From Poseidonia sp. (lineage in GTDB: Archaea; Thermoplasmatota; Poseidoniia; Poseidoniales; Poseidoniaceae), in assembly GCA_016778305.1 (NCBI GenBank), contig JADHPT010000002.1, positions 94,610 to 158,609 of the forward strand: DNA of 64,000 bases, written 5' to 3'. The position numbers and the translations under genes were made by a program. Positions 32,377 through 51,728 of this stretch are shown here, in pieces. A model generated the notes under the pieces. That model searched no databases, was not told the origin of the DNA, and worked only from the letters and a program-made list of their open reading frames with translations. The stretch's first letter is position 1. Each line of letters opens with the position of its first letter.

Positions 32377-32994
32377 TCACTTGTTCTTGAATCTCTTCAA
32401 GCGGAAGGTCTCTTCTCGCTCCATTTCTTCAAGACGAAGTTGAATGAATACCTTTGCTTCTTCAAGTTCTGGAATGACCTTGAATTCCAAAGCGTTGACA
32501 CGTCTTTTGGTAGCTTCGATTTCAGCGAGAAGGCGCTTCAGCGTAGCTTCCATTTCAGAAGCAGTCACGATTTTTTCAATCAATTCACTGAAAGAATCAC
32601 TTGCCTCATCGATGTAGGGTGAGGAACCGATAAATCCGATTCCTCGCTCTGCAAAGGTCGACTTGAGATTGGTCCCAGTAACGCTGGGAACGACCACGCC
32701 CATGATGTTACGACGATCGACTTCAACCTCTGGATGTGCTGAGTTGGCAATAGCGGCGGCTCGAACGGCCAGACCGCCTTCAATGGCATTGGCGAGGTCG
32801 ATGCGTGTTTTCGCTAAGGAGTAGGCTGCGGTTAAATCCCGCTTCGCTTCAATCATGACTGCGAGAAGTTGCCTGAATTCATGGAACAATCCGTCACGCT
32901 TCATTTTCAGAAGTTTGTAACCGTTTTTGGTTTGTTTGATACGGCCCTTGAGCTTGATGAGTTCGCTACGGGTTGGTTTAATGTCCAATGCCAT
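32377..32994 (-). CDS. atpD: A-type ATP synthase subunit D
   Basis: MALDIKPTRSELIKLKGRIK is a typical AtpD N-terminus. ATG 32994 is preceded by GGTGA; the ORF-track start 33003 is GTG. Confidence 0.9.
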   Translation of the reverse strand: MALDIKPTRSELIKLKGRIKQTKNGYKLLKMKRDGLFHEFRQLLAVMIEAKRDLTAAYSLAKTRIDLANAIEGGLAVRAAAIANSAHPEVEVDRRNIMGVVVPSVTGTNLKSTFAERGIGFIGSSPYIDEASDSFSELIEKIVTASEMEATLKRLLAEIEATKRRVNALEFKVIPELEEAKVFIQLRLEEMEREETFRLKRFKNK

Positions 32995-33028
32995 CGATCT
33001 CACCTCGTTCTTTGTTCACCGTTGTCGC

Positions 33029-34408: not shown

Positions 34409-34421
34409 CTCAATCCTCTCC

Positions 34422-36161
34422 TCAGTTGGTCTCCACCGCATCGGCAATTTCGTCGTTCATCTTCTTGACCATGGAATCAATACGGTCAATGTATCCTTTC
34501 TCAAAGCGAGCACGCATAAGGTCGGAGCGAGCAGGGACGTTGACGACATCGTTCAGTAGGGCACCGTCCGCCATAGCGCTCTTAGCAGCGTCTTGGAAGG
34601 ACAGAATGGCTTTGGCCATGTGGTATTGCAAGTGAATATCACAGTAAGCATCGACGTCGTGGAATCCATTTTGTTGCAAGAAGAATTCACGAATCATACG
34701 AGCGACTTCAAGGGTGAGTTGTTGGTCCACAGGTAGTGCGTCGGAACCGACAAGTTGAACAATTTCTTGGAGTTCAGACTCAATTTGAAGCAACACGCTG
34801 ATTTGTGTTCGGATTTCAGGGAAATCTTGAGCGATGTTATCACGGAACCACTGATCCAAGCTTTGCGGGTACAAGGAATAGGAATTCAACCAGTTGATTG
34901 CAGGGAAGTGACGTTGACGAGCCAATCCTGCATCGAGTCCCCAGAACACCTTGACAATTCGAAGAGTACCTTGGGAAACAGGTTCGGAGATGTCACCGCC
35001 AGGAGGCGAAACAGCACCGATAACGGTCACAGATCCGTCATCGCCGTTGAGTGTCTCAACACGGCCTGCACGTTCGTAGAATTCTGCAATTCGGGATGAA
35101 AGGTAAGCAGGGTATCCTTCTTCTCCGGGCATCTCTTCCAAACGGGATGAAATTTCACGCATGGCTTCTGCCCATCGGGAGGTTGAGTCCGCCATGAGGG
35201 CAACGTCGTAGCCCATGTCACGGAAGTACTCTGCAATGGTAATTCCAGTGTAAACGGATGCTTCACGGGCTGCAACAGGCATGTTTGACGTGTTGGCAAT
35301 CATCACAGTTCGCTCCATGAGAGGCTTCCCGGTGTTTGGATCAATCAAGTGAGGGAATTCGTCCAACACTTCTGTCATTTCATTGCCACGCTCTCCGCAG
35401 CCGATGTAAACCACAAGTTGAGCATCGGAGTACTTTGCAAGCGATTGTTGGGTAACTGTCTTACCCGAGCCGAACGGGCCAGGAATACCTGCTGCACCGC
35501 CCTTTGCGAGCGGGAACAGGAAGTCGAGAATTCGCATTCCAGTCACGAGAGGTGTGTCAGGAGCGTACTTTTGTTGGAAAGGTCGAGGGGTTCGGACAGG
35601 CCACTTCTGCATCATCTGCATTTCAGTGCCATCTTCGAGCACACAAACTGTTTGTGTGACGTTGAAATCTCCGGATTCAATCGATTTCACAGTACCGCTA
35701 GCGGTTGGTGGGACCATGATCTTGTGAATGATGGTATCAGTTTCTTGGACGTGGCCAATCACTTGGCCGCCGACCACTGCATCGCCAACAGCGACTTGTG
35801 GCTCAAAGGTCCAGATCTTTTCGAGGTCAAATGCGTCTGCGTCAACACCACGAGTGATGAACACACCCATTTCCTTCTCCAAGGTAGGGAGAGGGCGCTG
35901 AATACCGTCGTAAATTTGGGTTAAGAGACCGGGTCCCAATGAAACAGACAGTGTCTCTTCGGTGTTCAACACAGGCTCACCAGGTCGAATACCCGAGGTG
36001 TCTTCGTACACTTGGATGACGGCTTTTTCGCCGTGCAGCTCAATCACTTCACCCATCAGACCTTCGTGGCCAACTCGTACAACGTCATACATTGCTGCGC
36101 TCATGCCAGTGGCAGTCACGACAGGCCCCGAAATTCGGTAAATTACTCCTTCATTGCTCAT
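34422..36161 (-). CDS. atpA: A-type ATP synthase catalytic subunit A
   Basis: Walker [10 protein letters not shown], then [26 protein letters not shown]. The protein is 579 aa. Confidence 0.97.
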
Positions 36162-36189
36162 TTTTTCATCTCCTGGTTTGGTTGGAAGT

Positions 36190-36489
36190 TCACTTCCACA
36201 AATCGACTCCTATGGCTTTACGAATGGTGTCTCGCAAAGCGGTGTCTTCCTCCGTACCGATGCCAAGAACGGTAGGGGATACAGACGCAGAGAGTTGATC
36301 GCGCAACCGCTCTGGCAAGTCGGCAATCATGGCGGAGTCGACCACCACGATACCAACTGACTTATTGTTGAGTAGGGAACGAAGGGTTGAGTGCAATGCC
36401 TCATCACCTTCAGGATTGTGCAGATCAGAAAGACCTGCGAGTTGGAAGCCCAACGTGAATGCGGGGGAGCCTACGACTGAAATCTCCAT
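36190..36489 (-). CDS. atpF: A-type ATP synthase subunit F
   Basis: [20 protein letters not shown]..., 99 aa, positioned between atpC and atpA. Confidence 0.85.
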
Positions 36490-36498
36490 AATATCACC

Positions 36499-37539
36499 TC
36501 AAAGAACGTGTGCCTCCAGCACTTCGGAAGACAAACCAGCGAGACGACCGCGGACGATCAATCGCAAATCTGAAACTTCCTGGACCTTCATGGCCACATA
36601 GTGAATGATAGGAAGAGCCGATACGGGATGGAGGTAGCTCATCCGCTGCATCATGGTGTACTCTCGCGCTTTCATCCAGGTAACCACAGGGTCAAGGCTT
36701 CGTGTGGACGTTGCTTCTTGCAAAATACCTTCAAATTCAGTCATGTCAAAACGGTCACCTGAACGAAGAAGATCAAGCATGGCCTCACGGCCACCAGTAG
36801 CTATCGAGGAGAACATCCGCTTTGGAATCAGTCGTCCTCCTGGAATGAGCAGATGAACAAGTTGCTCGGAGGCAATACCTGCGGAGTCTGCTTCAAGGAT
36901 GTTGACGATGTTGCGGTGGTCTATTTCTGCTGCAAATAATCTCGATAGGAATCGAGCAGGCGCTCCCTTTGATTGAAGGAGAGCGCGCTGGGATGCAGCA
37001 TAGTAATGACGGTCAAGAGCGTCTTCATAATCGGCGAGTGAACCGTCTTCAGGTACCTTGGCGAGTGCTACACCGAAGGACTTGCGTCGCATCAAAACAG
37101 CAGCTGACCTAAGATCGTCACAACTCTCTACGACCTTAAGCCAAGGTGTGTTCACATCATTGATTTCGGGAAGGATACTGTTGCCCACTTCATCAACCGA
37201 AACTTCGTTGTGAATCGCACGCAAAACTGCTTTTGCATTTTGATATTCAAACCTCGAGGTATAGATCTCAATCAGTGGGCGAATGGTACGATTCGACATG
37301 TTGACGATATCGGTGAGTTCGCCTTCTAGATTGTGTGTGAGAGCAGCTTCAACCAAATCGCCACCGCTGAGTTTTCCAGCATAGAGGTCAATTTCAGTGC
37401 GGTATCCGATATCACCAACGGCTACTGTCAACTGGTCTACCGACTGGTTGATGAGTTGACGCAGACGTGCCCGGTCGGCCAGCTTTTGCCGTCGTGCCTT
37501 GGCACGTGAGACGACATAAGGGGTGTTTCCGAGCATCAT
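36499..37539 (-). CDS. atpC: A-type ATP synthase subunit C
   Basis: Size, helical content and position between atpE and atpF support the call. ATG 37539 is preceded by AAGGTGA; the ORF-track start 37548 is GTG. Confidence 0.85.
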   Translation of the reverse strand: MMLGNTPYVVSRAKARRQKLADRARLRQLINQSVDQLTVAVGDIGYRTEIDLYAGKLSGGDLVEAALTHNLEGELTDIVNMSNRTIRPLIEIYTSRFEYQNAKAVLRAIHNEVSVDEVGNSILPEINDVNTPWLKVVESCDDLRSAAVLMRRKSFGVALAKVPEDGSLADYEDALDRHYYAASQRALLQSKGAPARFLSRLFAAEIDHRNIVNILEADSAGIASEQLVHLLIPGGRLIPKRMFSSIATGGREAMLDLLRSGDRFDMTEFEGILQEATSTRSLDPVVTWMKAREYTMMQRMSYLHPVSALPIIHYVAMKVQEVSDLRLIVRGRLAGLSSEVLEAHVL

Positions 37540-37553
37540 GATATTCACCTTCT

Positions 37554-38117
37554 TTATCCAAACAGTGTTTCATTGACAGCAGAGAGATGGTTTGACCATG
37601 CACGCTGCAACATATTGTCAAAGCGCATGTCAAAGGACACGGAGCCATCTTCAGCCTCGAGGATAAATCCTCCAAGGCCTTCAACACTCTCGGCAACCTT
37701 TCGGTCACCGGCAGCCTTGGTAATAGCAGCACGGTCGATTTCAACGGGTCGAATGACAAATTTACCCTTTGCCAAGTTCTTAGATTCACCAAGCAGTGAT
37801 TTCAACAATGCAGCTCGTCCTTTCATGCCAGGATCGGCAATATGGTCTCGGGCAGCATCAAGTGTAGCGTCCAGAACCTTACGTCGTGCCACAAGGATGT
37901 CCTGTTGGTTCGATTGTCGGGCGCTGGCAACCAACTCACGAGCGAGTTGGGTTGCTTCCTTTTCTGCACGCTGCTTCGCTTCAGTTTGCATGTCGCCGAC
38001 CTTGGTTTCAGCATCGGCTAACAATTGTTTGGCATCTGCTTTCGCAGCCTTAATCAGCGCTTTGGCTTCTTTTTCAGCCGAAGCAGCAATGTCTTGGGCA
38101 AGTGTTTCTAATGTCAT
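37554..38117 (-). CDS. atpE: A-type ATP synthase subunit E
   Basis: A long N-terminal A/K/E-rich helix (EKEAKALIKAAKADAKQLLADAE) is followed by a C-terminal globular part. Operon position supports the call. Confidence 0.85.
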   Translation of the reverse strand: MTLETLAQDIAASAEKEAKALIKAAKADAKQLLADAETKVGDMQTEAKQRAEKEATQLARELVASARQSNQQDILVARRKVLDATLDAARDHIADPGMKGRAALLKSLLGESKNLAKGKFVIRPVEIDRAAITKAAGDRKVAESVEGLGGFILEAEDGSVSFDMRFDNMLQRAWSNHLSAVNETLFG

Positions 38118-38177
38118 TCTTTTATCTCCTTCATCGTTCGTTCGATTGGGCCTTCGCCCAACGGAAACCGTTTCTCC

Positions 38178-38492
38178 TCAACTTCCGAGGAAAAGCGGAA
38201 GTGCACCGAGAATCACAATGGATTCTGGAAGAGCGGTGAAGATCAAAGCAACACCGAACTTGCTGCCGTCTTCGGCAAGCATGCCGACAGCAGCGCTGCC
38301 GATAGCGGCTTGGGAGAATCCAGCCCCAATGGCGGCGAGGCCAAGGGCTAGACCGACACCAACGTCGCCAGTCATTCCGTCAGTTGCACCCGAATCGGTT
38401 GTCTCTTGTGCAGCAACACCTTGGGCGACCAAGGCGAGCGTTAGCAAGACGATCAGTGTGCGTAGGCTTGTTTTTAGGGTATTCTTGTTCAT
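38178..38492 (-). CDS. atpK: A-type ATP synthase proteolipid subunit K (c), with N-terminal hydrophobic extension
   Basis: The G/A-rich hairpin GLALGLAAIGAGFSQAAIGSAAVG...ALIFTALPESIVILGAL carries the ion-binding Glu in LPES. It is preceded by LIVLLTLALVAQGVAA and a polar spacer. Confidence 0.9.
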   Translation of the reverse strand: MNKNTLKTSLRTLIVLLTLALVAQGVAAQETTDSGATDGMTGDVGVGLALGLAAIGAGFSQAAIGSAAVGMLAEDGSKFGVALIFTALPESIVILGALPLFLGS

Positions 38493-38522
38493 ATTTCTAC
38501 CTCCTAGTTTTTGTCCGTGGGA

Positions 38523-40550
38523 CTATGATTGCCCCTCCGTATGGAGGGTGCGACCGCCGAGTGGGGTAAAAACCCGACCGGAGCCGTCGTAGAACTTGCC
38601 CATCCACTCAACGAAGTGGAGACGGGCTGCGTGGATGCTCGGGGAGAGCAAGCCAAGTGCGAGAGCAAATGCTTGAATCAGGAGGAAAAGTACGGCGCCG
38701 AAGACAATTTCAACGATTCCAGCGCCAGTTGCTGTCATCATATCCCATCCCATCACGATGGAAACTTCTGCGATTTTGACACCCGCAACGCCCACGCCCA
38801 TGACACGGAGGTACGAGAGTGTGTTAGCGAGTAGGCCGAAGGTTTCAATCGGTCCCATGATCAAACCACCTGCCCAACCAAACTTCTCAAAGACTGCAAG
38901 GCCGATGATGAGGCAAACAATTCCAACCAGAACTGCGAGACCTGGAGTAGTTGATGCAAAGACTGCATGGTCGCCCATGAGGAATCCGTAGATATGGACG
39001 AACCCGCCTGTGAGGATAATAATCCAGCTTCCTTTCTCGAAGAAAGCAGCAACCAGGCCGTGGGCCTTTGCCACATTGATGAAACCGATGATAAATCCGA
39101 CCATCAAATGGAATACGCCGAGATAAACAGAGAGCAAAACATAGTCCTGTAGCGCTCCTGTTGCTCGGTGGAAGGGGATGTGAGTGTGCGTCATGTTGAG
39201 GGTGTCAGCAACGAAGGCGGGGAAGTGGATGTTGTCGTAGGTCCAAACGTAAAGTCCATCAAGAGGCGACCATGATTCGTCCCATACAAAGCCAAAACCT
39301 TCTGCGAATAACAAACCCCAAATGATACACCAAACACCCATCCACTTCAGGATGGTGATGCCGTTATTGACCACTGGGTCGGCTGCGAAGGGTTTGGTGC
39401 CCAGCCACATTCCCAACAGGAGAATGATGAGGCCGTAGCCGAAGTCGCCTAGGATAAGTCCGTAGATCATCGGGAAGGTGAACATCATCAGAACAGTTGG
39501 ATCAAAGGAGCCGTAGGTGGGGCGTCCAACCAAGTCCACCATCAACTCGAAGGGGCGAGAAACTGCGTTGTTTTCAAGTGCGACCGGAGGAGAAGGTTCG
39601 TGGTGGCCATCATGGCCATCGTCGTGATGATGGTCGTTCACAAAGGCCTCGACTTCGACATGCGAAGCAATGTTGCTCAAAGCAGAGCGGATTTCGCTTT
39701 CCTTGGCGGACGGGACCCATGCATCGAGAGCAAAGGCTTGCCCTGTCACGGCCATTTGGGTCGGAGCGGTGAAGACTTGGTCTTCCTTGGACAAATATTC
39801 GTGGATGGCGAGCATGTTGCGAGCGTTGTCATTTGCCCAGCGTTGAGCATGTTCTGATGCTGCCTCCATGCTGTCTGCAACTTCGGAGCGACGGGATGAG
39901 ATCGTTTTGATGGCTTCGCTTGGAGTACCGTTCATGTCGGGGATTTGAACTGCTTTGCCCCCTAATTCACCCAGTGCCATCTGAACTTCTGCGGATTGGT
40001 CCGGAAGACAAGCAACGGCGACGATACCAGGTGCTGTTGCCATCTCAACCTTGGAAGCGAGTGGGCCGAAGATGCCACGGGCTTTGCTTGACTTCTTTGT
40101 TTCAGAGACAAAGACTTCAACTCGGCCTGTGCCTGTGAGCAATTCCAAGTCCATGTTCAAGGGAGCAAGGCGCTCAAGGAGTTTGAGTTGCTCATCGAGT
40201 ACTGATAGTTCAGATTCTGCATCTCGTTGTTGGTCGAGCAGGTCAAGACCTTCTTGCAACTTCTCTGGGAAGTCTCCAGCGATCAATTCTTTGATCCGAG
40301 AGAGAGGGACAGGCCCGTCTGCGTTAACTGGTTTGAAGGCAGAGACTGCTGCACGTACTTTAGCGAGCAAGGCGCTGACGTTGTTGGCCTCATCGCTGGC
40401 GATAGCTTGTCCAACATAGACGCCATCTTCGAAATTGGAATAGGACTCAACATGAACACATCCAGCATTGGTGCAGGCCCGAATGACTTCCTCCATACGA
40501 TCGACTGGCGCAGCCACTGTCAAACGAGACATGGCCACGGTGTCGAACAT
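38523..40550 (-). CDS. atpI: A-type ATP synthase subunit I (a)
   Basis: A 675-aa protein with a soluble N-terminal half and a polytopic C-terminal half ending ...LSYLRVMGVGVAG...IHAARLHFVEW (conserved Arg helix). Confidence 0.92.
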   Translation of the reverse strand: MFDTVAMSRLTVAAPVDRMEEVIRACTNAGCVHVESYSNFEDGVYVGQAIASDEANNVSALLAKVRAAVSAFKPVNADGPVPLSRIKELIAGDFPEKLQEGLDLLDQQRDAESELSVLDEQLKLLERLAPLNMDLELLTGTGRVEVFVSETKKSSKARGIFGPLASKVEMATAPGIVAVACLPDQSAEVQMALGELGGKAVQIPDMNGTPSEAIKTISSRRSEVADSMEAASEHAQRWANDNARNMLAIHEYLSKEDQVFTAPTQMAVTGQAFALDAWVPSAKESEIRSALSNIASHVEVEAFVNDHHHDDGHDGHHEPSPPVALENNAVSRPFELMVDLVGRPTYGSFDPTVLMMFTFPMIYGLILGDFGYGLIILLLGMWLGTKPFAADPVVNNGITILKWMGVWCIIWGLLFAEGFGFVWDESWSPLDGLYVWTYDNIHFPAFVADTLNMTHTHIPFHRATGALQDYVLLSVYLGVFHLMVGFIIGFINVAKAHGLVAAFFEKGSWIIILTGGFVHIYGFLMGDHAVFASTTPGLAVLVGIVCLIIGLAVFEKFGWAGGLIMGPIETFGLLANTLSYLRVMGVGVAGVKIAEVSIVMGWDMMTATGAGIVEIVFGAVLFLLIQAFALALGLLSPSIHAARLHFVEWMGKFYDGSGRVFTPLGGRTLHTEGQS

Positions 40551-40559
40551 GATATCACC

Positions 40560-40886
40560 TCACTCCGAAGTCAATCCATCGACAACCATTTGCACGGCTT
40601 TGTCTTGATTTGATGATGAGTTCTTCTCGATAGAAGCAACTTCTTTGGAACCTTCTGATTTGACTGAATCTGCTTCTGCCTGTGCGCCAACACGAGCTTC
40701 GTCGAGAATCTTCTGAGTCATAGCAACGGAGTCTTCTGCTGCAGATTGTACCATTTCAGAGGACTTTTTACGAGCGTCAGACATGATTTTTGCCGCTTCT
40801 TCTTGAGCGGCGGCAAGGCGAGATTCCGCTTCTTGCTCGGCGTTTTTGATGCTGCGGAGAACGTCGACCATACCCATGATGAACAC
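40560..40886 (-). CDS. atpH: A-type ATP synthase subunit H
   Basis: VLRSIKNAEQEAESRLAAAQEEAAKIMSDARKK is a typical subunit H helix, and this is the first gene of the atp cluster. GTG 40886 is the ORF-track start; ATGs at 40877 and 40871 are alternatives. Confidence 0.8.
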   Translation of the reverse strand: MFIMGMVDVLRSIKNAEQEAESRLAAAQEEAAKIMSDARKKSSEMVQSAAEDSVAMTQKILDEARVGAQAEADSVKSEGSKEVASIEKNSSSNQDKAVQMVVDGLTSE

Positions 40887-40917: not shown

Positions 40918-41691
40918 TCAGTCTAACGGGGTTGCTTGCTGGTCCACCGATTCGGGTTTCCTACCACGAAACCGACTGGCCATTCCGAATGGATAAAGAA
41001 GTCTTCCTTGAACGTTATCGAAGCCAACCGCCTTCATCATCTTCCGATAGTAACCGTTTGTGCCATAGTGCGTGTAACTTTTTGCAAGCCCTTTCCACGG
41101 GTGATTTTTCTCTCCTGTGATGATACGCGCCATGATTTGCACAACCGAATTCATCCAAAGGACACCAAAGATTCCATGCAGTTTATTGGCCTTACCTGCA
41201 TCACAGATGACCAACTGGCCTCCAGGTTTCAAGACTCGGAAAATCTCTTGTAACCCCTGTTTTTTATCCTTAAAATCACGGAATGAGAACAGGCAGAAGA
41301 CCATGTCAAAGGTATCGTCTGGCAAGGGAATGGATTCTGCAATGGCTTCGACGTACTCTGCGGGAGGCTCCCCCCGTTGTTGCCGTGCTCCATCGACCCT
41401 CCGACGAGCGGTTGCAAGCATTTCGGGAGAGGGGTCCAAACAGGTCACGTCCAACCCCGTGAGGTCTTCGGCGAAGGAACCCGGACCACACCCTACCTCG
41501 AGAACTTTCATCCCTGGCTTGGCATGCTGTCGGACATTTCGCCGCCATCGCTTGTCTTGACCAAAGGTCATCCATTTGTTGACTCGGTCGTAATTTGGAA
41601 TGGTGGCTTCAAGCTGACCTTCGAGTTCTTCCCACGCATCTGAGTCAATGCCCGAGGGGTCAAATCCACCCGTTGCAGCACGCTTGCTCAT
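40918..41691 (-). CDS. class I SAM-dependent methyltransferase (UbiE/MenG-like)
   Basis: VLEVGCGPGSFAEDL is SAM-binding motif I. DMVFCLFSFRDF and LKPGGQLVICD are motifs II and III. The N-terminal YDRVNKWMTFGQDKRWR resembles UbiE/MenG. Confidence 0.8.
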   Translation of the reverse strand: MSKRAATGGFDPSGIDSDAWEELEGQLEATIPNYDRVNKWMTFGQDKRWRRNVRQHAKPGMKVLEVGCGPGSFAEDLTGLDVTCLDPSPEMLATARRRVDGARQQRGEPPAEYVEAIAESIPLPDDTFDMVFCLFSFRDFKDKKQGLQEIFRVLKPGGQLVICDAGKANKLHGIFGVLWMNSVVQIMARIITGEKNHPWKGLAKSYTHYGTNGYYRKMMKAVGFDNVQGRLLYPFGMASRFRGRKPESVDQQATPLD

Positions 41692-41748: not shown

Positions 41749-42552
41749 TCATGCGATACGTTCGACCGTTTCGGGCGTAATACCCTCTTCTGGTGTTACG
41801 CGGAAGACCAAAATCTTCAGGTTTTCAGGTGCGTTTCTAAACTTTGAAACGATCATCGAATTTTCAAAATCGGTTCCAATCGTACGGACCTTGAAAGAGA
41901 GGACCATGTCGGCAATGGATGACAATTCTTGTTTGATTGAGGGGTTCAACCCGTCGGTAGAAACGGAAATCATCAACAGGCCACGTACCATCTGAGCGTG
42001 AGCTTGGAGCATCCGAACCATTGAAATGACGCGAGATGGGTCTTCACGTTGGAGGAAGAAATCCAAATTGTCGAGCACCGCTCTGAAGTAAGGGCCGAGA
42101 CCCATGATTTCATTGGTGACTTCGGTCAAGTAGTCTTGACTGCTATCGTCAACGAATCGTGTTTGGGCAAGACGTTGGATATCTGCCAATTGAAAGCCCT
42201 CAAGACGGTACCTGCTGGCCAACAGATCTCGTTCCAAAACATTCGCGTTGTACTCCTCGCCAATGGTTCGAACGTTGATATCAAGGGGCCAACTGTATTT
42301 TTTGAAGATACGAGTGATCTCTTGCTGTCCTTCATCGGTCGTGATGTACAATGTATTGTCAGGTTCTTCAGCAGGTGAGGTGAATTGTTTTGCAAATAAT
42401 TCGCTCCCTGAGCCTGTTTCAGTAAAGGCAATCATGGTAAATCCCCTGGGGACGCCACCGTTCATTTCATTGTCGAATTTTGGAACACCAAAGGAACCAA
42501 CGGTGCCAAAGAACTCTTCATCTTCTGGGTCAAAATCAAATTTTCTTGCCAT
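41749..42552 (-). CDS. KaiC/RecA-fold paralogue with ablated Walker A
   Basis: GGVPRGFTMIAFTETGSGSELFAKQF aligns to GGIPxGxxxhhxGxxGxGKTxxxxQF, with GSGSE in place of GSGKT. The later RAVLDNL is Walker-B-like. Confidence 0.7.
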   Translation of the reverse strand: MARKFDFDPEDEEFFGTVGSFGVPKFDNEMNGGVPRGFTMIAFTETGSGSELFAKQFTSPAEEPDNTLYITTDEGQQEITRIFKKYSWPLDINVRTIGEEYNANVLERDLLASRYRLEGFQLADIQRLAQTRFVDDSSQDYLTEVTNEIMGLGPYFRAVLDNLDFFLQREDPSRVISMVRMLQAHAQMVRGLLMISVSTDGLNPSIKQELSSIADMVLSFKVRTIGTDFENSMIVSKFRNAPENLKILVFRVTPEEGITPETVERIA

Positions 42553-42562
42553 CCTTCATCCC

Positions 42563-43153
42563 TCACATTAAGACCACTTGGCCACGGTCAACAAGATCCG
42601 TGCAGTAGGTGTCAAGATTGGCCAAAACCAATGGCGGGGTTTGGTCTGGCACGTTGAGAATGACCGAAAGCACCTCTCGCTGACGGAAGGTATTGATGAA
42701 GGTGTGAAGATATTCCGCCAACATTCTGTCGTCGTTGTAGATGGCCAAGGCATTGACGCTGTCGAGGAAAACAAAATTTCGTTGTGAATTCACCGTTCGA
42801 AGTACGTAGAGCGTGCGAAGAAGGGTACTTTCAAGCATGATTGGACTGTCGATGAACGTGATGTTCGGATATTCCACATCGGTTCCACCCAACACTCCGG
42901 ACGACACCAAGTCAAGGAAGTGGATGTTGGACACGTCGATCCCGATGGCCTCGAAGGCCTGGATAATTTCAACGGCACCACGGCTTGCTGAGATGTAGAC
43001 GCCCCCCATCTCAAACATCTGCATGAGAGGAAGAATTGTACTGGCCGTCACCATAAAGGAATTTGAGGTACCCACCCGAACTTGAACGGCGCTGCCCAAG
43101 GAAACTTGCGTGAGTTGCTCTGCGATACGTTGGTCGAGTTCAAACATCATCAT
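42563..43153 (-). CDS. KaiC/RecA-fold paralogue lacking a P-loop
   Basis: LGSAVQVRVGTSNSFMVTASTIL occupies the P-loop position with no GK[ST]. FVFLDSVNAL is Walker-B-like. ATG 43153 overlaps the upstream stop (ATGA at 43150-43153); ATG 43162 is an alternative. Confidence 0.6.
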   Translation of the reverse strand: MMMFELDQRIAEQLTQVSLGSAVQVRVGTSNSFMVTASTILPLMQMFEMGGVYISASRGAVEIIQAFEAIGIDVSNIHFLDLVSSGVLGGTDVEYPNITFIDSPIMLESTLLRTLYVLRTVNSQRNFVFLDSVNALAIYNDDRMLAEYLHTFINTFRQREVLSVILNVPDQTPPLVLANLDTYCTDLVDRGQVVLM

Positions 43154-43932
43154 TGCCCCCATCGCGAGTTTTTATCACTTGACGCGCCCCATTTCAGCAT
43201 CGGGATGAGCATCACGCCAAGCGGCGTTAATTCGATCGCATGCTTGGCACGACTGTGAGCAGTTCCACGCATTTTAACCACCTGAAGGAAGCGAAGCAAA
43301 TGGCCCATCCGTTCTGCATCACCCATCACAATAATGCCGTCTGCAATGGCTTCTTCAACACCAAAGGAAGACCAGTGAGCGTTTTCTGTGGCAGAGGTGA
43401 TTTCTGAGATCAGGATGGTTGTACATCCGAGTGTGGCTAATTTCTTTCCTAACGTGAACAGGAAGTCTCTGATCAATTGTTCTGACTTAATCTTGTAACA
43501 AAGCGTCGTCACTGAATCAATCACCAGACGGGTCACACCAATGGTGTTGACGATGTCGACAATGGACTTGATGAGAGCGTGAACGTCGTCAAGGTCAAAT
43601 GAAGCCTTTTCGAGCCCGAGCCAGGAATACAAAACGTCCATGTCAAAGACGTTGATGAGGCCAGAATCGACCATGTTCATGTCAAAAAAGGCGTACTGAC
43701 GAATGTTTTCGAGTAATTTGACCGAGGGTTCTGTAGCGGTGAAGTGGGCGCATGCCTCACCAGCCAACGCTCCACGAACAAGAAACTCCATGGCCAAGGT
43801 GGTCTTTCCTGAACCGCATGTTCCCGCTGCGAGAACCGTTGAACCGTACGGGATACCTCCGCGCAGAATTTCGTCCAAGCCGTGGATTCCTGTGACGCAG
43901 CGGTCGCGTGTGTAAATACTGGTGGATTGCAT
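43150..43932 (-). CDS. KaiC-like single-domain RecA-superfamily ATPase (intact Walker A/B)
   Basis: TGIHGLDEILRGGIPYGSTVLAAGTCGSGKTTLAMEFL, Walker B TRLVIDSVTTL, and LQVVKMRGTAHS. ATG 43932 is preferred; the longer ORF to 44022 overlaps the upstream gene. Confidence 0.85.
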   Translation of the reverse strand: MQSTSIYTRDRCVTGIHGLDEILRGGIPYGSTVLAAGTCGSGKTTLAMEFLVRGALAGEACAHFTATEPSVKLLENIRQYAFFDMNMVDSGLINVFDMDVLYSWLGLEKASFDLDDVHALIKSIVDIVNTIGVTRLVIDSVTTLCYKIKSEQLIRDFLFTLGKKLATLGCTTILISEITSATENAHWSSFGVEEAIADGIIVMGDAERMGHLLRFLQVVKMRGTAHSRAKHAIELTPLGVMLIPMLKWGASSDKNSRWGQ

Positions 43933-43999: not shown

Positions 44000-45115
44000 T
44001 CAAGCCAGAGGCGTATACTCACCAGGAGTAGGGTCGTCTTGCAAACTCCATGAGTTCGATGAGAAGCGATTGTTGCCGTCCCATTCCATTGATTGCCCAG
44101 TCACCATGAACAATCCAGTGTTGCCGCCCCATTCCACTCGCATCACATCAGAAGGGGTAATCTCAGCAAGTTGAGTATAGCGAAGACTCAGTACGCCTTG
44201 TCCGTCTGCAAGCCCGTCGAGGAGCCCCACTCCGAGGAAGGAATATTGACCGAGGTCAAGAACATGGGTGGCGTTGCCCACCTCTTGACTTGAGACATCG
44301 CCCGTCATAATGGAAACGGATTTCCCAGAAAGGACTCCTGATTGAAGCAGGAGGTTGGAGGATGTCGAACCGCTCACGTGGTTGAGAGACCATCCCTTGA
44401 GAGAAATTGCGAAGTCGTTCGGGTTGTACACTTCAATCCATTCTGGCCCACTCGATGAGGGGCGTGCCATCACTTCAGTGACATGCAATTGGTTATTTTT
44501 TCGACCTCCGTCATGCACTTCTAAAATCACACGCAATCGTTCACCGTCTTGCTGGAAGGAACGGTAGGCTGTCGATGAGGATGGGGCACTTCCACGCTCG
44601 GTTCCCCCGGAAAACAAAACCAGGCCGACACGGGCTGTATCTGAGCTCTCCTCCACCTGTATCTTGAGGTATAGCGTCATGTCGCTGTCAAGACCCAAGC
44701 CTGCCGCCATACCTTCTTCAGTAACATTGTGAAGGGCAGCTATCCGCTCAAAGTCCAATCGATACTCCTGCATCAATCCCGCTTGAACACGACCGTCTGC
44801 AAGATCTTCTGCAGAGGCCTGATGCCATGAGGCAGTGGCGTTTCCATAGTCAAGCGAACCGTCGAGGGGAACAAACCAACCTTCGCTTGACGTGAGTCGG
44901 TCCAGCCCCATTGCTGCTGCTCGGTCCAAACGGTCCACATCAGGGTCGTTGGAGCCCATTTGCAATTGTGCGAGGGAAAGAAAGGCCGTTAAGATCATTA
45001 AGAATAGCGTAAAAGCGGATAGAAATTCAATGACTGCTGTCAATCCACCCTCGTCCCGCTCCGACGAGATTACCGGAGCCTTGCGCATGGTTGGCCACAG
45101 TCGGCTGAGATTCAT
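44000..45115 (-). CDS. TadE/pilin-like N-terminal anchor protein with C-terminal lamin-tail domain (LTD)
   Basis: The N-terminal ERDEGGLTAVIEFLSAFTLFLMILTAF resembles the TadE/Flp-type G-x-x-A-V-E-F hydrophobic segment. LHVTEVMARPSSSGPEWIEVYNPNDFAISLKGWSL matches the LTD hallmark (hxEVxxNPxGxxxEWIELYNxxxxxhxLxGWxL). Confidence 0.65.
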   Translation of the reverse strand: MNLSRLWPTMRKAPVISSERDEGGLTAVIEFLSAFTLFLMILTAFLSLAQLQMGSNDPDVDRLDRAAAMGLDRLTSSEGWFVPLDGSLDYGNATASWHQASAEDLADGRVQAGLMQEYRLDFERIAALHNVTEEGMAAGLGLDSDMTLYLKIQVEESSDTARVGLVLFSGGTERGSAPSSSTAYRSFQQDGERLRVILEVHDGGRKNNQLHVTEVMARPSSSGPEWIEVYNPNDFAISLKGWSLNHVSGSTSSNLLLQSGVLSGKSVSIMTGDVSSQEVGNATHVLDLGQYSFLGVGLLDGLADGQGVLSLRYTQLAEITPSDVMRVEWGGNTGLFMVTGQSMEWDGNNRFSSNSWSLQDDPTPGEYTPLA

Positions 45116-45220: not shown

Positions 45221-48196
45221 TTGAAGCACGAATGCGACGACAATATGATGAGCGAGCGCAAGCCATGGGCGAAAACCAATACGAAAGCCAGTTTTGGCTT
45301 TGTCCTCCTGCTCCTGTTTTCCTCTCTTGGAGCGCTCCTTACAAGCCCAACCAGCAGTGCTGTTGTATCGGGTTCGCTCGGATTGACGGATTCGGCATCC
45401 CCCACCGAAGATTCGTGGCATTCTTCCTTTGACACCATGACCTTATCAGTAGAGGTTAGCAATCTTTACGGGACACCATCTCCTACCAACCGAGGGTTGG
45501 CATGGTATGCTTGTGAAGGTGAGGTCACATCATCGGCATGCAAGTCAAATTATGATGAAAAAGGACTCTTTTCAATCGGTAGCATTCCTGCCTCGACTTC
45601 AATCGTCTTCACCTCAACAGATGCCTGGATCCCCGGAGGGAGCGCAGAAGGAGCCTACACCGTAGTGTTCGCCTTTGATGAAAACGACCAGAACCCTTCC
45701 GATGATGAATTGGTATTCAATGTCAACATCACGAACTTTTACGCTGATGCCATGGTTAACGAACAACACAATCCTCTCGAAACTATTGACAACTTAGCCA
45801 CATATAACGGTAGCAGCGTCCTAAATACTGGTACAGATTATGCTTTCAATGCTCGAGGCCAAGCCACGATTTGTTCAGGTTGCTTCTTTGATGCAAACTT
45901 TGGCTGGCAACTTTGGGATGCAAGTGACAGCATGATGTTGAGAGAAGCCTACAGGAACATCTCAACCCTGCCTGCATGGGGAGGAATGTCCCCTTTCAAC
46001 ATCAACCTCCCTGCATTTTCTTTCAACCAGGAGGGAGAATATCTTCTCAAGTGGGGTGTGTTTTCGAGCACAGGAAACCCGTATGGAGACCTCAACGCAG
46101 CCAACAACTTAGCGTCTACATTATTGGTGCTCGACGACAGCATTGATCTCCAAGTTGTCGATGTATACCCCAGCCATAACTCCCAAGCATCAACCTTCTA
46201 TTACGGAACTGACCGTGTCAAGGCGGACATACTCAATCAAGGGAATATGTCTGTTGAGAACATTACCGCAGCCTTCGAAGTTTACGACGGTCAATTCCAA
46301 ATGGAGGTTCAAGATTCATGCGAGATCCCATTGCTTCACCCCGGTGAAAGCATCACGTGTTCCTTCAATCTTACAACAACAGGTACAAGTCGCCTGTTGC
46401 GGGTTCAACTGCCTACCATCTACCAAGCGGGGGAAGATGTACGAATGGCTGACAACCTCTTTTCCTTCAATGCAAATGTCGAAACAGGCGCCATTAACCC
46501 CTACGTGCAAACCAATGCTATAGACAACATTTACGAGAGTTCAGATGATATTGAACTGGTCGGTCGATTTAGTAGCATAGCCTCCCAACCACTCAATTAC
46601 ACGTGGCGTGAGGGATTCTACATCTGGGGTAACGGCCAGATGCTCAACAAAACTGGTGAAACCTTCGGGCTCGGCCACCACAACCTCACCCTCGAAGTAA
46701 GAGACCCCTTTGGCAATACTGAATACACCTATGTTGAATTTGATGTACTTAATTCAATCAACCTGAGCGTTGACCCGTACTGGACTGGCTATGCTGTAAC
46801 CGAGCAAGAGGCGGACTTTGAACATGAAATCGCTTTACCCTATTTGGGTAGCAATTACGGCATAGGTGAAGGAAAGTCACCACTGATGATGATTTCCATT
46901 GACATCACACCAGCAATCGGTGATGACATGGTCCTACGGGAAATGTATTTGGATCTGAATTTGAGCCAACTACTGCCACCAAATATTGACCAATCAACCG
47001 TTGATTTGAGATATCTTCCAACGCTTGATTCAACTCTTTGGACCTACATTGAAGGCCTCGATAGTTATTCAATTGATGAAGCAGGTATGGCAAGCCTTTC
47101 ACTCACCAAAGAAGGCGTGATTCTCATCGTTGGCGTCCTACCCGAAACCAACGTTACGGTTGACAATTTGAATTGGACTCGAATTTCAGGTGGACAAATT
47201 GATTTGAATTGGACAGCAGTGGGAGACATCACAAATCCATATGTCGGAGGCTGGAATATCTACAAACTGCAAGGTCTATCAGGAACGACCTTCTTCCCCG
47301 ACCCGCAAGCTGGCATCAGTGAATTCATCTGGGAAGAATTAACGCGGGACTCACTCGTGACGACCATGGCACTCACTGACGAATCGTGGCTTGACCCTGA
47401 ACCTTTGCCAACCGGTATCTGTGCATCGTATTCCATTATACCAATCGACAGAGAAGGGAATCCAAATTACGAGATGGCTGAGATTGCTCGAGTTGATGGT
47501 ATTGCTGGCCTTGTTTGTGGGGATGCAATCCCTCCGACAACCTCAATCATTCAATTCAATCACCAATGGAGTTTTACCAACGACACTGATTGCTTTGATT
47601 ACAAGAAAGACTGGTCCTTGTGCTACGTTGTGAACCTGTCCTGGACGTGGCCCGATCATGAAGCCCAAGGGGAACTCACGTGGAACCTTTACCGACTGGA
47701 GTATGCTCCCAACAACGTTGACTTGAAATTCATTACTCCAATTGCAACTGAACTCTCAGGGACACCCGGAGAACAAGGTGCATTCAATCAGAGTGGCATG
47801 CAAATTGATGGCGTTCGCCCCTATCGCACCTACTACTATGTCCTCGCCCCTATCGACAGCGTAGGCAATGAACAAATGATTGCAGACTACCCGTCAGACA
47901 ATGTTGAACGCGTCTCCATTCAAGACGACTGGTGGACCTACAATCAACATCTCATCCCGCCAGAGCCCGAACCTCCCGAACCACCTCTTGGCATTCCCTG
48001 GCTGCAAAAATTAAACGATGCGACCCAGGTCTCTGAATTCCAATTCGCTGGTTTTGCACTGCTCGGTATCTTCGTTCTCAACGCCATCCTCCTCCCACTC
48101 CTACTCAAGAAGCGAAAGCGCCTCAAGAGAGTCATCGATGCACGAAAGCGCAACATCAAAGCCTCCGATGACGAATTCGATGACTTCTTCGAATGA
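45221..48196 (+). CDS. large secreted, C-terminally membrane-anchored surface protein (adhesin/S-layer-like), sequon-rich
   Basis: The N-terminal signal-like ASFGFVLLLLFSSLGALLTSPTSSA is followed by ~930 aa rich in beta-type segments and many N-x-S/T sites (NITNF, NGSS, NISTL, NMSV, NLTT, NYTW, NKTG, NLTL, NLSV, NVTV, NWTR...). The C-terminal TM FAGFALLGIFVLNAILLPLLL is followed by KKRKRLKR and an acidic tail. Confidence 0.75.
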   Translation: MKHECDDNMMSERKPWAKTNTKASFGFVLLLLFSSLGALLTSPTSSAVVSGSLGLTDSASPTEDSWHSSFDTMTLSVEVSNLYGTPSPTNRGLAWYACEGEVTSSACKSNYDEKGLFSIGSIPASTSIVFTSTDAWIPGGSAEGAYTVVFAFDENDQNPSDDELVFNVNITNFYADAMVNEQHNPLETIDNLATYNGSSVLNTGTDYAFNARGQATICSGCFFDANFGWQLWDASDSMMLREAYRNISTLPAWGGMSPFNINLPAFSFNQEGEYLLKWGVFSSTGNPYGDLNAANNLASTLLVLDDSIDLQVVDVYPSHNSQASTFYYGTDRVKADILNQGNMSVENITAAFEVYDGQFQMEVQDSCEIPLLHPGESITCSFNLTTTGTSRLLRVQLPTIYQAGEDVRMADNLFSFNANVETGAINPYVQTNAIDNIYESSDDIELVGRFSSIASQPLNYTWREGFYIWGNGQMLNKTGETFGLGHHNLTLEVRDPFGNTEYTYVEFDVLNSINLSVDPYWTGYAVTEQEADFEHEIALPYLGSNYGIGEGKSPLMMISIDITPAIGDDMVLREMYLDLNLSQLLPPNIDQSTVDLRYLPTLDSTLWTYIEGLDSYSIDEAGMASLSLTKEGVILIVGVLPETNVTVDNLNWTRISGGQIDLNWTAVGDITNPYVGGWNIYKLQGLSGTTFFPDPQAGISEFIWEELTRDSLVTTMALTDESWLDPEPLPTGICASYSIIPIDREGNPNYEMAEIARVDGIAGLVCGDAIPPTTSIIQFNHQWSFTNDTDCFDYKKDWSLCYVVNLSWTWPDHEAQGELTWNLYRLEYAPNNVDLKFITPIATELSGTPGEQGAFNQSGMQIDGVRPYRTYYYVLAPIDSVGNEQMIADYPSDNVERVSIQDDWWTYNQHLIPPEPEPPEPPLGIPWLQKLNDATQVSEFQFAGFALLGIFVLNAILLPLLLKKRKRLKRVIDARKRNIKASDDEFDDFFE

Positions 48197-48365: not shown

Positions 48366-49385
48366 TCAAAGAGGGCCAAGCGGACCGAGCATGGAACTGG
48401 GAATGAAGATGATGAGAACCAGTGATAAGAACATCCACCCGAGGTAATACAGGCTTCTGAAAAACGATTTCGCTGCTTTCGGCATTCGACCGTTTTCATC
48501 AAAGGGCTCATTTGGATCAATCGCCCACACAGATGCTGCATACCAGAGAGTCAAGCCTCCAGAGACAAAGGCCCAAAGAAGTGGTAGGCCAGATTCAGGC
48601 CAGAAGCAGGGTACTGACCCCAACAAAAAGAGCAACATGCAGTAGATCTTAGCTTGCTTGAGGGTGTATTCAGGCCCTTTGACCTCATTCATCATGGGAA
48701 TGTTGACCTTCCCGTATTCGCCTGAACGGTACAGAGCAAGCGCCCAGAAATGAGGGGGCGTCCACAAGAAAATCAAGAAAAAGAATACCCACGGAATTGG
48801 AGAACCAAGGGCGAGCATGCTCCCTCCTGCTATGGAGTCACCTGCTGCTGCTGCCCATCCAATCAGTGGGGGAGTTGCACCTGCAATACCGCCGATGACA
48901 ATGTTTTGTGGTGTACGACGTTTGAGCCACATTGAGTAAACAAAAACGTAGAACAACACTGAAAACAAGGACCAAAAGGCTGCTTTCACGCTTACCAAGA
49001 GAAAGAGGCTGGAACCGACCAGAGCAATGATGCTACCAAAAACCAGAGCAAACTGAGGCGTTGCATGTCCTTGGGGAACGGGGCGATTCATGGTACGGCG
49101 CATGTGGGGGTCAATGTCAGCATCGTACCACATGTTGATGGCGTTGGAACCACCAGCGGACAAGGTCCCACCTACCACAGTAAGAGCGATGGTGCCAAAG
49201 GTATCTATCCAAGAACGATCGAGTTGGATGACATCGTAGCGTGCGAGCGTATCGTGAACCAATATCGCACAAATCGCAGTGATCTGAAGCAGGACAATGA
49301 CTCGGAGTTTCATCAATCGAATCATGACCTTCAAGAGGCCGGGGTGTTCAAGTTCAGAGGTTTCTGAAGCTTGAGAATCTGTCAT
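48366..49385 (-). CDS. ctaB: protoheme IX farnesyltransferase (heme O synthase)
   Basis: Polytopic UbiA-family protein with NMWYDADIDPHMRRTMNRP (the D-rich prenyl-diphosphate motif) and GGIAGATPPLIGWAAA. The start overlaps the ctaA stop (ATGA at 49382-49385). Confidence 0.9.
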   Translation of the reverse strand: MTDSQASETSELEHPGLLKVMIRLMKLRVIVLLQITAICAILVHDTLARYDVIQLDRSWIDTFGTIALTVVGGTLSAGGSNAINMWYDADIDPHMRRTMNRPVPQGHATPQFALVFGSIIALVGSSLFLLVSVKAAFWSLFSVLFYVFVYSMWLKRRTPQNIVIGGIAGATPPLIGWAAAAGDSIAGGSMLALGSPIPWVFFFLIFLWTPPHFWALALYRSGEYGKVNIPMMNEVKGPEYTLKQAKIYCMLLFLLGSVPCFWPESGLPLLWAFVSGGLTLWYAASVWAIDPNEPFDENGRMPKAAKSFFRSLYYLGWMFLSLVLIIFIPSSMLGPLGPL

Positions 49386-50452
49386 TCTTGCTCAGCCCCG
49401 AGGATTCGGTTTGATTCTGAACAAAAGCGCATGCAGAACATCAAAAACACGGCAGACAGGAATGCTCCAACTCCGACGACAAGGTGGAGAAGAGAAAGCC
49501 ACTCCGGGAAATCTCCGACCTTTGCGAAAACGATGTATGAACCACCGACCATGACGTTGACCAGCCAAATACCGGTGGTGATTTCTCCAAACCGAACCAA
49601 TTCCTTTGCTCCATCTCGCCCCTCTGAAGAGGTACGGAGGTTTGATACGCCGAGAATCAGAACCAACCCAACCACAAGAGCTCCAAATCGATGAATCATT
49701 TGAATGAAAATCCCTGGGCCTTCAATCGAAGGAAGGAAGGAACCTTGACATTGAGGCCACCCCGTTGGGAAGCCAACCGAGCAACTTTGGTTGTATTGTC
49801 CTCCAGCAGAGGATGAAACCCAAGCACCAAGAACCAACAACAAGCCTACGGCTCCAGCCATTGCGTTGGCTCGGGAGGTGTGGGCGTTCACAAAGTCCGG
49901 AGGTGAACGGAGGAAGGCCCATCGTGCCCCCTCCCGTATTCTCATTTCCATGAATTGCCAAAGCAAACCTGCGGTGAAGATACAAGCGAGTGATAGGTGG
50001 AGCGCAACGGTCCAATCCGCATTGTCATAACGTACGGTAATGTATCCAGCAGTGGCCTGAATAACCAACAAGGTCGCAGAGAACACCGAACTTTGAACCA
50101 CCCGTTTACCATAGGTCTGCCGTGTTCTGTATGCTAACAACACGTTCAAGATGATGGGCAAAGCGATAACACCGACTAAAAACCGATGAAACCACTCAAC
50201 AAAAATTTGGAAGGTGGTGTAACGGTGGTCTTCGCCTCGCGAATCGATTTGTTCAGGATTCTCATCCCAATACGCCTCCTGCTCTTCTTCGGATACATCA
50301 AAATGCCAGGTTCCAAAGCAGGTAGGCCATTCAGGGCAGGACTCACCTGCGTCATTGATTCGGATGCTCCCACCGACGATAACAATGAGCAGGGCCATAA
50401 CGGCCAGAACCAGCGGGAGGGTTGACGGGCGACGCCAAACCGACTGTTCCAT
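49382..50452 (-). CDS. ctaA: heme A synthase (COX15/CtaA)
   Basis: GGSIRINDAGESCPEWPTCFG (Cys pair) and conserved His-bearing helices (VEWFHRFL, ALHLSLA, IHRFGALV, LLHLVVG). ATG 50452 is preferred; the ORF-track start 50485 is TTG. Confidence 0.88.
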   Translation of the reverse strand: MEQSVWRRPSTLPLVLAVMALLIVIVGGSIRINDAGESCPEWPTCFGTWHFDVSEEEQEAYWDENPEQIDSRGEDHRYTTFQIFVEWFHRFLVGVIALPIILNVLLAYRTRQTYGKRVVQSSVFSATLLVIQATAGYITVRYDNADWTVALHLSLACIFTAGLLWQFMEMRIREGARWAFLRSPPDFVNAHTSRANAMAGAVGLLLVLGAWVSSSAGGQYNQSCSVGFPTGWPQCQGSFLPSIEGPGIFIQMIHRFGALVVGLVLILGVSNLRTSSEGRDGAKELVRFGEITTGIWLVNVMVGGSYIVFAKVGDFPEWLSLLHLVVGVGAFLSAVFLMFCMRFCSESNRILGAEQE

Positions 50453-50485
50453 GTTGCACCGTGGGAGCAGACCCCTTTTGAACAA

Positions 50486-51476: not shown

Positions 51477-51728
51477 ATGGTCAAGCCAGCACGACTCCAC
51501 ACACGATTTGAACGAGCACGAATTATTGGCGCACGCGCCCTCCAAATTGGAATGGGTGCCCCTCTCTACGCCACCGAAGAAATCCTTCGTGACGAATTCA
51601 AGGAAGAATTGATTTCTCTCTACGGTCTTGAAGAAGCTGCCATTCGTTTCGTACTTGACCCTCTCAAGATCGCTCTCTATGAATATGAGAATCACTTGAT
51701 TCCCATTGACATTGACCCTCACGAATGA
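51477..51728 (+). CDS. rpoK: DNA-directed RNA polymerase subunit K (Rpo6)
   Basis: [21 protein letters not shown] plus [17 protein letters not shown] are the RpoK/Rpb6 motifs. ATG at 51477; the ORF-track start 51468 is GTG. An insertion of ~25 aa separates the two motifs. Confidence 0.88.

Follow-up and report, generated by a model that had tools for sequence, protein, structure and literature searches.

Several KaiC-like systems of archaea have been described. ArlH is a single-domain KaiC-like protein of about 230 aa with one catalytic Glu, for which autophosphorylation rather than measurable ATPase activity was reported; its hexamer docks on ArlI, a type-IV-filament ATPase, and its phosphorylation state is regulatory (bioRxiv 10.1101/2021.03.19.436134). 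According to the same work, RecA/KaiC rings bind nucleotide at the interface between subunits, where the site is completed by a Lys/Arg finger of the neighbor (bioRxiv 10.1101/2021.03.19.436134). KaiC-family ATPases have been associated with archaeal type IV pili (PMC4858521), and in Haloferax volcanii the loss of CirA, a KaiC-like protein encoded in the archaellum cluster, suppresses the motility defect of pilin deletions (PMC10983859). Inactivated KaiC-like domains (iKaiC) have been described as well (Makarova, Galperin and Koonin 2017, as cited in PMC5847659), and the citing text places them in response regulators and HalOD1 proteins. Here we analyzed three consecutive genes, designated g1, g2 and g3, in a stretch of 64,000 nucleotides from Poseidonia sp. 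(GenBank assembly GCA_016778305.1, contig JADHPT010000002.1, positions 94,610 to 158,609 of the forward strand; the whole stretch is referred to as the window). An original prediction, made from the sequence of the window, had described the genes as a coupled triplet of KaiC/RecA-fold paralogues, one with a competent P-loop and two dead. We found that they almost certainly represent an ancient co-translated KaiC-family module conserved across Thermoplasmatota, and we incline, by a small measure, to the view that the three co-translated proteins form a heteromeric KaiC-like module with a link to pilin-type surface proteins. Poseidoniales (Marine Group II) are among the most abundant archaea of the surface ocean, and because the lineage is uncultured, conserved operons offer one of the few handles on its cell biology.

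Conservation, coupling and constraint of the trio

One genome per GTDB species was scanned, and 319 genomes contained a g3 relative; the 80 closest loci, together with 3 loci from a protein look-up, were inspected. The ordered g1-g2-g3 set was complete in 79 of these Poseidoniales loci (almost all of them GTDB species representatives), and the remainder were truncated or frameshifted. Nearly all loci with enough flank showed the same layout, in which a divergent large surface gene is followed by a gene for a lamin-tail domain (LTD) protein and then by g1, g2 and g3. Thalassarchaeaceae (Marine Group IIb, MGIIb) had the same five genes with different downstream flanks. Beyond Poseidoniales, the trio was found in genomes and metagenomes of other Thermoplasmatota as a KaiC protein of ~250 aa, a g2-type protein of ~190 aa and a g3-type protein of ~248 aa, usually encoded by genes that overlap by 4-8 nt. 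A scan with g3 sequences from outside Poseidoniales as seeds yielded 80 loci from diverse metagenomes, 48 of which had enough upstream sequence, and the complete ordered trio was present in 47 of these 48. The syntenic conservation that the original prediction had left to be checked is thus found both in Poseidoniales and in other Thermoplasmatota. The arrangement recurs in more than 120 independent loci of the two groups and is more than chance.

In the window, the LTD gene, g1, g2 and g3 form a tight row on the minus strand that continues into a methyltransferase gene and an A-type ATP synthase operon (Table 1). All three trio coordinates of the original prediction were correct, as was the translational coupling that it had read: the TGA of g1 and the ATG of g2 share the ATGA at 43150-43153, and g3 starts 10 nt past the g2 stop. 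No run of five or more T residues was seen between any of the LTD gene, g1, g2, g3 and the methyltransferase gene when the sequence was read directly. Since g1 orthologues open with MQxxxxYTRDRC, the start of g1 was assigned to the ATG at 43932 and not to the upstream GTG at 44022. At one metagenomic locus (L084, 1444-2556), a gene for a 370-aa protein with a Pfam ATC_hydrolase match and recurring CPFSYGYARALW-like motifs was wedged between g2 and g3. This protein looks like an internal duplication and could supply the trio with a ligand-binding sensor module.

The ratio of nonsynonymous to synonymous substitution rates (dN/dS) was computed against the two closest genomes, for which dS was 0.65-0.97; against distant genomes dS was saturated. 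The values were 0.002-0.005 for g1, ~0.01 for g2 and 0.007-0.010 for g3, all lower than those of the adjacent methyltransferase and LTD genes (0.03-0.04). No gene of the trio is decaying, and purifying selection on them is very strong. Protein identity between Marine Group IIa (MGIIa), in which near-identical proteins named Candidatus Poseidonia place the window, and MGIIb was 79% for g1, 66% for g2 and 59% for g3, compared with 41% for the LTD protein and 30% for the 991-aa product of the divergent surface gene. The g3 protein of another Poseidonia metagenome-assembled genome (L004, 10001-10801) was nearly identical to the window copy (100% by tblastn, with ~3 nonsynonymous differences), and about 82 of 178 synonymous sites differed between the two (dS ~0.7); such near identity despite this synonymous divergence indicates unusually strong constraint on the g3 protein.

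Nucleotide sites of the three paralogues

The g1 protein belongs to the Pfam KaiC family (PF06745), scoring 178.1 bits against a gathering cutoff of 26.6. Its Walker A, T-E, hhhhDS and KMRGTxHS motifs showed ~100% conservation among 106 orthologues, and the P-loop, which had been called intact as GTCGSGKTT, retained the GxxxxGK[ST] pattern unchanged in 104 of 104 aligned orthologues. This pattern, the mark of Mg-ATP competence, occurs in neither g2 nor g3, the latter reading GSGSE. Judged by sequence, g1 is the only member of the trio with a canonical P-loop competent for Mg-ATP. A role of g1 in anti-phage defense was also considered and was dropped because a weak PADLOC match (mad8) was the sole sign of it. 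The Walker-B-like strands noticed earlier in the three proteins (RLVIDSV in g1, FVFLDSV in g2 and RAVLDNL in g3) are all present.

The g3 protein is also a member of PF06745 (54.1 bits, above the 26.6 cutoff). HMMER aligned its segment TETGSGSELFAKQF column for column with the GxxGxGKT-containing helix of KaiC and of Sso2452, and for this reason the Lys-to-Ser and Thr-to-Glu changes, which the original prediction had taken from a hand alignment, are considered real. The description of the site as ablated or dead held only in this respect: the glycine-rich loop, the catalytic Glu, the Walker B Asp and the K-x-R finger are kept, and the replacement of Thr by Glu or Asp is itself conserved. Across 351 relatives the family signature was GxxG[ST]G-x-[E/D]-LFAKQF. 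The position of the Walker A Thr was acidic in 350 of the 351 sequences (E in 293, D in 57; the last row is a gap), and the Lys position was occupied by S, M, T, A or L, with K still present in 35. Conservation in the same set was 99% for the catalytic Glu, 98% for the Walker B Asp and 98% for the finger Lys; the finger Arg was found in 90%, with Lys in a further 7%. With an acidic residue in place of the Walker A Thr, and in most cases without the Lys, the g3 P-loop should be unable to coordinate Mg-ATP in the normal way. In KaiC, specific finger residues complete the nucleotide site of the neighboring subunit, and HMMER aligned SKFRN of g3 with the KaiC finger LKFRG. On the evidence of these alignments, g3 is a conserved pseudo-ATPase variant and not a decayed gene.

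An AlphaFold2 model of g3 had a predicted local distance difference test (pLDDT) score of 86.6, and a Foldseek search with this model placed Sso2452, KaiC and FlaH on top (E ~1e-13; template modelling (TM) score up to 0.76 on the target). The best structural match was Sso2452 (2w0m), which we take to be a RadA paralogue, and the NCBI label of g3 relatives is “RAD55 family ATPase”. Both features would suit recombination mediators of the RadA/Rad51-paralogue type (aRadC/“Rad55” family), acting as a heteromer with degenerate Walker motifs as do eukaryotic Rad55-Rad57 and the Shu complex. It is well established that active and degenerate Rad51 paralogues can combine into heteromers. Besides, at locus L090 the trio is followed by a gene for a 168-aa protein (no Pfam match, its C-terminus OB-fold-like by eye only) and then by a gene for a 981-aa protein with a faint family-B DNA polymerase match. 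However, repair or replication genes did not recur in the loci examined, where the conserved neighbors were pilins and membrane or surface proteins, and the NCBIfam RadA and RadB models scored far under their cutoffs. We regard a recombination role as very improbable. The names currently attached to these proteins, which for g2 relatives are “hypothetical protein” or “FlaH”, are probably misleading in the case of both g2 and g3.

The g2 protein scored 21.8 bits (E 1.4e-4) against PF06745, which is under the family cutoff of 26.6, and a phmmer search with g2 found no match among PDB sequences. Alignment of g2 with g1 and g3 by hhalign was limited to Poseidoniales-only alignments that were too shallow (1.2-1.5 effective sequences), and structure prediction with Foldseek was used instead. 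An AlphaFold2 model built from a diverse alignment (pLDDT 90.7; predicted TM score 0.88) had PH0284, KaiC, FlaH, PH0186 and RecA as its top Foldseek matches at a probability of 1.0, with TM scores of 0.6-0.7 to 2dr3, KaiC, 4yds and 2zts. According to this model, g2 is a KaiC/RecA-fold protein, with membership at the fold or superfamily level only. The KaiC/RecA fold assigned earlier to g2 and g3 is borne out by the models and their Foldseek matches, and for g3 also by PF06745. In the g2 model the P-loop region is just a turn of ~3 residues (GTS) that joins strand 22-26 to helix 29-46, with no glycine-rich loop, which indicates that the P-loop is absent and not substituted. The original prediction was right that g2 has no competent motif, but its equivalence of Lys and Met is meaningless for a loop that does not exist in the model. 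The protein also lacks the N-terminal GLD/GGIP segment, the catalytic Glu (the region reads GVYISASRG) and the C-terminal K-x-R finger hairpin; it has family-specific motifs of its own (GIYIT, F[IV]D, ESPxMLE and IYN). An exhaustive search placed g2 relatives in 613 representative clusters. Many of them are stand-alone proteins of ~190 aa, and some form the C-terminal part of fusions with TPR or DUF835 modules; their Pfam matches were DUF7504, DUF7090, DUF835 and KaiC, the last with 30-33 bits. One protein of 2519 aa (P0244) contained 40 separate stretches matching g2 residues 129-172, that is, the Walker-B strand and the next helix, and is a repeat protein assembled from a fragment of the iKaiC core.

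Table 1. Positions of the trio, its motifs and neighboring genes in the window.
Feature	Positions	Strand	Description
g1	43150-43932	minus	260 aa; single-domain KaiC-like ATPase with all catalytic motifs
g1 Walker A GTCGSGKTT	43798-43824	minus	intact
g1 catalytic T-E (TATEPS)	43723-43740	minus	single catalytic Glu
g1 Walker B RLVIDSV	43510-43530	minus
g1 Lys/Arg finger KMRG	43264-43275	minus	motif KMRGTxHS
g2	42563-43153	minus	196 aa; truncated KaiC/RecA-fold core (iKaiC type), by model
g2 Walker-B-like strand FVFLDSV	42755-42775	minus	hhhhDS retained
g3	41749-42552	minus	267 aa; KaiC-family pseudo-ATPase, by sequence
g3 altered P-loop TETGSGSEL	42397-42423	minus
g3 catalytic Glu (ITTDEG)	42328-42345	minus
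g3 Walker B RAVLDNL	42064-42084	minus
g3 finger SKFRN	41833-41847	minus
LTD gene	44000-45115	minus	371 aa; membrane-anchored, lamin-tail domain; 5' of g1
CARDB-domain secreted protein gene	45221-48196	plus	991 aa; divergent from LTD gene
ubiE/menG-type SAM (S-adenosylmethionine) methyltransferase	40918-41691	minus	57 nt 3' of g3
A/V-type ATP synthase operon, complete	32377-40886	minus	H/G-like, I, K, E, C, then A, B subunits

Pilins and surface proteins next to the trio

Clustering of neighbors in the non-Poseidoniales loci showed that the commonest conserved one was a protein of ~155 aa encoded directly 3' of g3 on the same strand, often in 2-3 copies. These proteins carry a canonical archaeal class III signal followed by a hydrophobic helix (RKDxxA-VSPVIATILMVAITVVLAAVLYVMV), and one of them scored 45.8 bits against Pfam Pilin_N and matched solved archaeal pilins. 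Downstream sequence of 700 nt or more was available for 64 loci, and 40 of them had one to three pilin genes 3' of g3, at 18-235 nt from its stop. Two loci (L086, 10022-10531; L089, 8884-10382) had pilin pairs adjoining the KaiC module and remote from any pilus machinery. They are akin to cdiPA/cdiPB of Cuniculiplasma divulgatum, which lie ~500 kb from the machinery operon (PMC12448462). The pilin link is open to study in cultivable Thermoplasmatales, whose pili have recently been solved.

In Poseidoniales, the LTD gene was located 5' of g1 in all loci with flank. Neither this gene nor the pilin genes of other lineages had been part of the original prediction. The LTD protein (Pfam LTD, 39 bits) has an almost invariant N-terminal segment, ERDEGG-LTAVIEFLSAFTLFLMILTAFLSLAQ (44996-45061), that is conserved between MGIIa and MGIIb despite the low overall identity of the protein. 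The N-terminus of the family reads [E/D]x[G/A]-LTAVIEFLSAFxLFLMILTAFLSLAQ, the residue before LTAVIEF being G or A in 76 of 76 orthologues, while the remainder of the sequence diverges. Judging by the orthologues, translation may in fact begin at the Met at 45088. Short relatives were found outside this setting: one 5' of the trio at L162 starts with the canonical RRERKA-LVPVLEF, and one 5' of g3 at L168 starts with DEG-IVHIIEF. A FlaFind-like regular expression gave no match across the window, where the LTD copy reads E-G-G-L. It is possible that the LTD protein is a non-canonical prepilin-like protein. In one MGIIb locus (L001, 8825-9841, minus strand), a 338-aa polytopic membrane protein with a GGADAK motif and a sub-threshold Arc_PepC_II match is encoded convergently to g3. 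It is a probable prepilin/preflagellin peptidase, and no relative of it was present in the window.

The divergent gene upstream encodes a fast-evolving secreted protein with a Pfam CARDB match, a C-terminal membrane anchor and a basic tail. Among the Poseidoniales loci whose upstream flank was long enough, nearly all had a relative with 30-90% identity at this divergent position, and the match was of near full length in 69 loci. This protein may be an adhesin or a cell-surface partner, peripheral to the trio.

Apart from pilins, the neighborhoods vary, and in Poseidoniales the trio is followed by the ubiE-type methyltransferase gene and then by the A-type ATP synthase operon, without an evident terminator in between. 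A broad role as signal-transduction hubs of archaea has been proposed for KaiC-like ATPases (Makarova et al. 2017, as cited in PMC5847659 and PMC10983859). These points would fit a general KaiC-type hub for signaling or timing, with stress, light or energy state as its input and pilins as just a frequent neighbor or output. However, no KaiB-like or other known partner gene was seen in the loci examined, and pilins are by far the commonest conserved neighbor, on the same strand and close behind g3, and we consider a hub of this kind quite improbable. A pilus or surface function of the trio appears to us evenly balanced. If it holds, the ArlH paradigm would reach beyond archaella and take in adhesion pili.

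Further observations concern the genes around the cluster. The methyltransferase gene, which may share a transcript with the trio, is syntenic across MGIIa loci and does not occur at this position in MGIIb. Genes for haem O/A synthases (UbiA-type and COX15/CtaA) and for tryptophan 2,3-dioxygenase lie nearby on the minus strand (48366-50485 and 51719-52849), and in a lagoon relative (L003) they also adjoin the cluster, partly rearranged. At 16034-18996 (minus strand), a 636-aa protein with a weak AAA_16 match and an adjoining 350-aa protein without a Pfam family are encoded by genes that overlap by one base at 17086; they may be an uncharacterized STAND-like NTPase pair.

Proposed mechanism and comparison with known systems

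We propose that g1 would act as an ATPase/autokinase, by analogy with ArlH and KaiC, and would be the sole subunit that binds and turns over Mg-ATP. The pseudo-ATPase g3 may donate its Lys/Arg finger to finish the nucleotide site of a neighboring g1, a role that it should be able to fill because it keeps this trans-acting finger. A docking or adaptor role is suggested for g2, which has neither P-loop nor finger, because g2-type domains elsewhere are fused to TPR or DUF835 modules. The trio would assemble as a KaiC-like ring or sub-ring in which some interfaces are catalytic and others are not, and the nucleotide or phosphorylation state of the complex would govern the production or assembly of pilin-type surface proteins. 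The output would be PilA-type type IV pilins in most lineages and, in Poseidoniales, the upstream LTD protein and perhaps the divergent 991-aa surface protein. As working analogies we consider ArlH on the archaellum motor or CirA in pilin-dependent control of motility. The invariable gene order, the overlap of stop and start codons, the strict co-occurrence of the genes and the strong constraint that all three share (very low dN/dS) argue for one complex, and together with the trans-acting finger of g3 they lead us to judge a heteromeric complex somewhat more probable than not. The adjacency of pilin genes, the published association of the KaiC family with type IV pili and the CirA genetics point to pilin-type surface structures as the output.

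Several observations weigh against this proposal. Nearly two fifths of the non-Poseidoniales loci with sufficient downstream sequence (24 of 64) had no adjoining pilin, and no pilin was located 3' of g3 in Poseidoniales, the lineage of the window. The Pfam scan of the surroundings covered part of the open reading frames (ORFs) at 16-41 kb and 48-56 kb of the window, which flank the cluster; among these ORFs there was no pilus ATPase or platform gene, of T2SSE/ArlI type or ArlJ/TadC type, and no prepilin peptidase. The LTD protein had no Pfam pilin match (E<=1) and gave no signal with a custom hidden Markov model of 43 pilin N-termini, so its link to pili is weak. Two further points bear on the heteromer. 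First, g1 owns a finger as well and has the full set of cis and trans motifs, and homo-hexamers or a ring of g1 without g2 and g3 are conceivable. Second, L168, the exception among the 48 metagenome loci, has g3 without g1 and g2 upstream; its short membrane protein of the LTD-N-terminal type stands there instead. A Methanomassiliicoccales genome has a g1-g2 pair alone, without g3, and g2-type domains also occur by themselves or fused to other domains. These features of the trio genes would also fit separate KaiC-family regulators (homo-oligomers or monomers) that are co-transcribed for a shared pathway and form no obligate hetero-oligomer. On the other hand, the fixed order, the stop/start overlaps and a near-universal co-occurrence are typical of the subunits of one complex, and the finger of g3 would be useful only when facing a nucleotide-binding neighbor, as g3 itself has no usable site. 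We therefore consider separate regulators unlikely, and return to the heteromeric complex.

The original prediction had pictured an obligate hetero-oligomeric ring. In its strongest form, the complex would be an obligate hetero-hexamer, e.g., (g1-g2-g3)x2, in which only g3-to-g1 interfaces are catalytic. The g3 loop with its invariant GxxGxG-x-Glu/Asp would then represent a novel type of P-loop that either occupies itself or takes up a ligand different from Mg-ATP, for example a partner in phosphorylated form. The assembly would be a hitherto unrecognized regulator that controls the display of type IV pili or surface proteins throughout the phylum, the globally abundant Marine Group II included. 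This version is speculative and somewhat unlikely. The trio nevertheless offers a clean natural case of how RecA-fold rings might have diversified into asymmetric heteromers, one that can be tested with purified proteins.

Among known systems, the Rad51/RadA-paralogue assemblies (Rad55-Rad57, the Shu complex and aRadC, represented by Sso2452) resemble the proposed complex in being RecA-fold paralogue heteromers in which some Walker motifs are degenerate or missing. However, they act in DNA recombination, whereas the surroundings of the trio show no repair genes and link it to pilins and membrane proteins. The Cir proteins of H. volcanii are likewise euryarchaeal single-domain KaiC-like proteins; the possibility that the trio has the same arrangement was ruled out, as the cir genes are dispersed and their Walker motifs are all intact. 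Cyanobacterial KaiC shares the fold and motifs, interface sites with a finger from the neighbor, and the presence of paralogous domains of differing activity in one assembly. It differs in having two active domains in one chain and KaiA and KaiB as partners, whereas the trio consists of three separate single-domain proteins, two of them non-canonical, and no KaiB-like gene was found in the loci inspected. Scores against the circadian KaiC models were far under the cutoffs (133 versus 408 for NF006799 and 98 versus 546 for TIGR02655).

Similarity to ArlH/FlaH is closer in some respects: each protein has a single RecA/KaiC domain, the genes are found next to those of pilin-like filaments, FlaH was among the top fold matches of both g2 and g3, and the C-terminal half of g3 had ArlH as its best NCBIfam match. 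In contrast, ArlH is one gene with an intact Walker A, located in the arl operon with ArlI and ArlJ, whereas the trio is made up of three different paralogues, only one of which has a canonical P-loop, and the ORFs scanned in the window include neither ArlI nor ArlJ. Against the ArlH model NF052589, g1 scored 36.6 and g3 49.9 bits, compared with a cutoff of 215. Given such scores and the absence of the respective partners, the trio is neither ArlH nor a circadian KaiC.

Both g2 and g3 fit the descriptive definition of iKaiC as given in the texts that cite it, i.e., a KaiC-like domain with a disrupted nucleotide-binding motif, and they share with it a KaiC-like fold and a disrupted nucleotide site. 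Domains of the iKaiC kind occur either stand-alone or fused to sensor or output domains, and g2 relatives are likewise found by themselves or fused to TPR or DUF835. The passages citing the concept give no fixed three-gene unit with a GxxGxGx[E/D] subunit. The earlier statement that no such archaeal system was known is too strong, since the iKaiC concept (as cited in PMC5847659) and KaiC-pilus links (PMC4858521) are both in print. In the literature searched, a fixed operon of three paralogues, a GxxGxGx[E/D] subunit and its presence in Marine Group II were undescribed, although the arCOG tables of the iKaiC survey may list the families. The general ideas, namely inactivated KaiC domains and links between KaiC and pili, are already published; what is apparently new is this particular trio.

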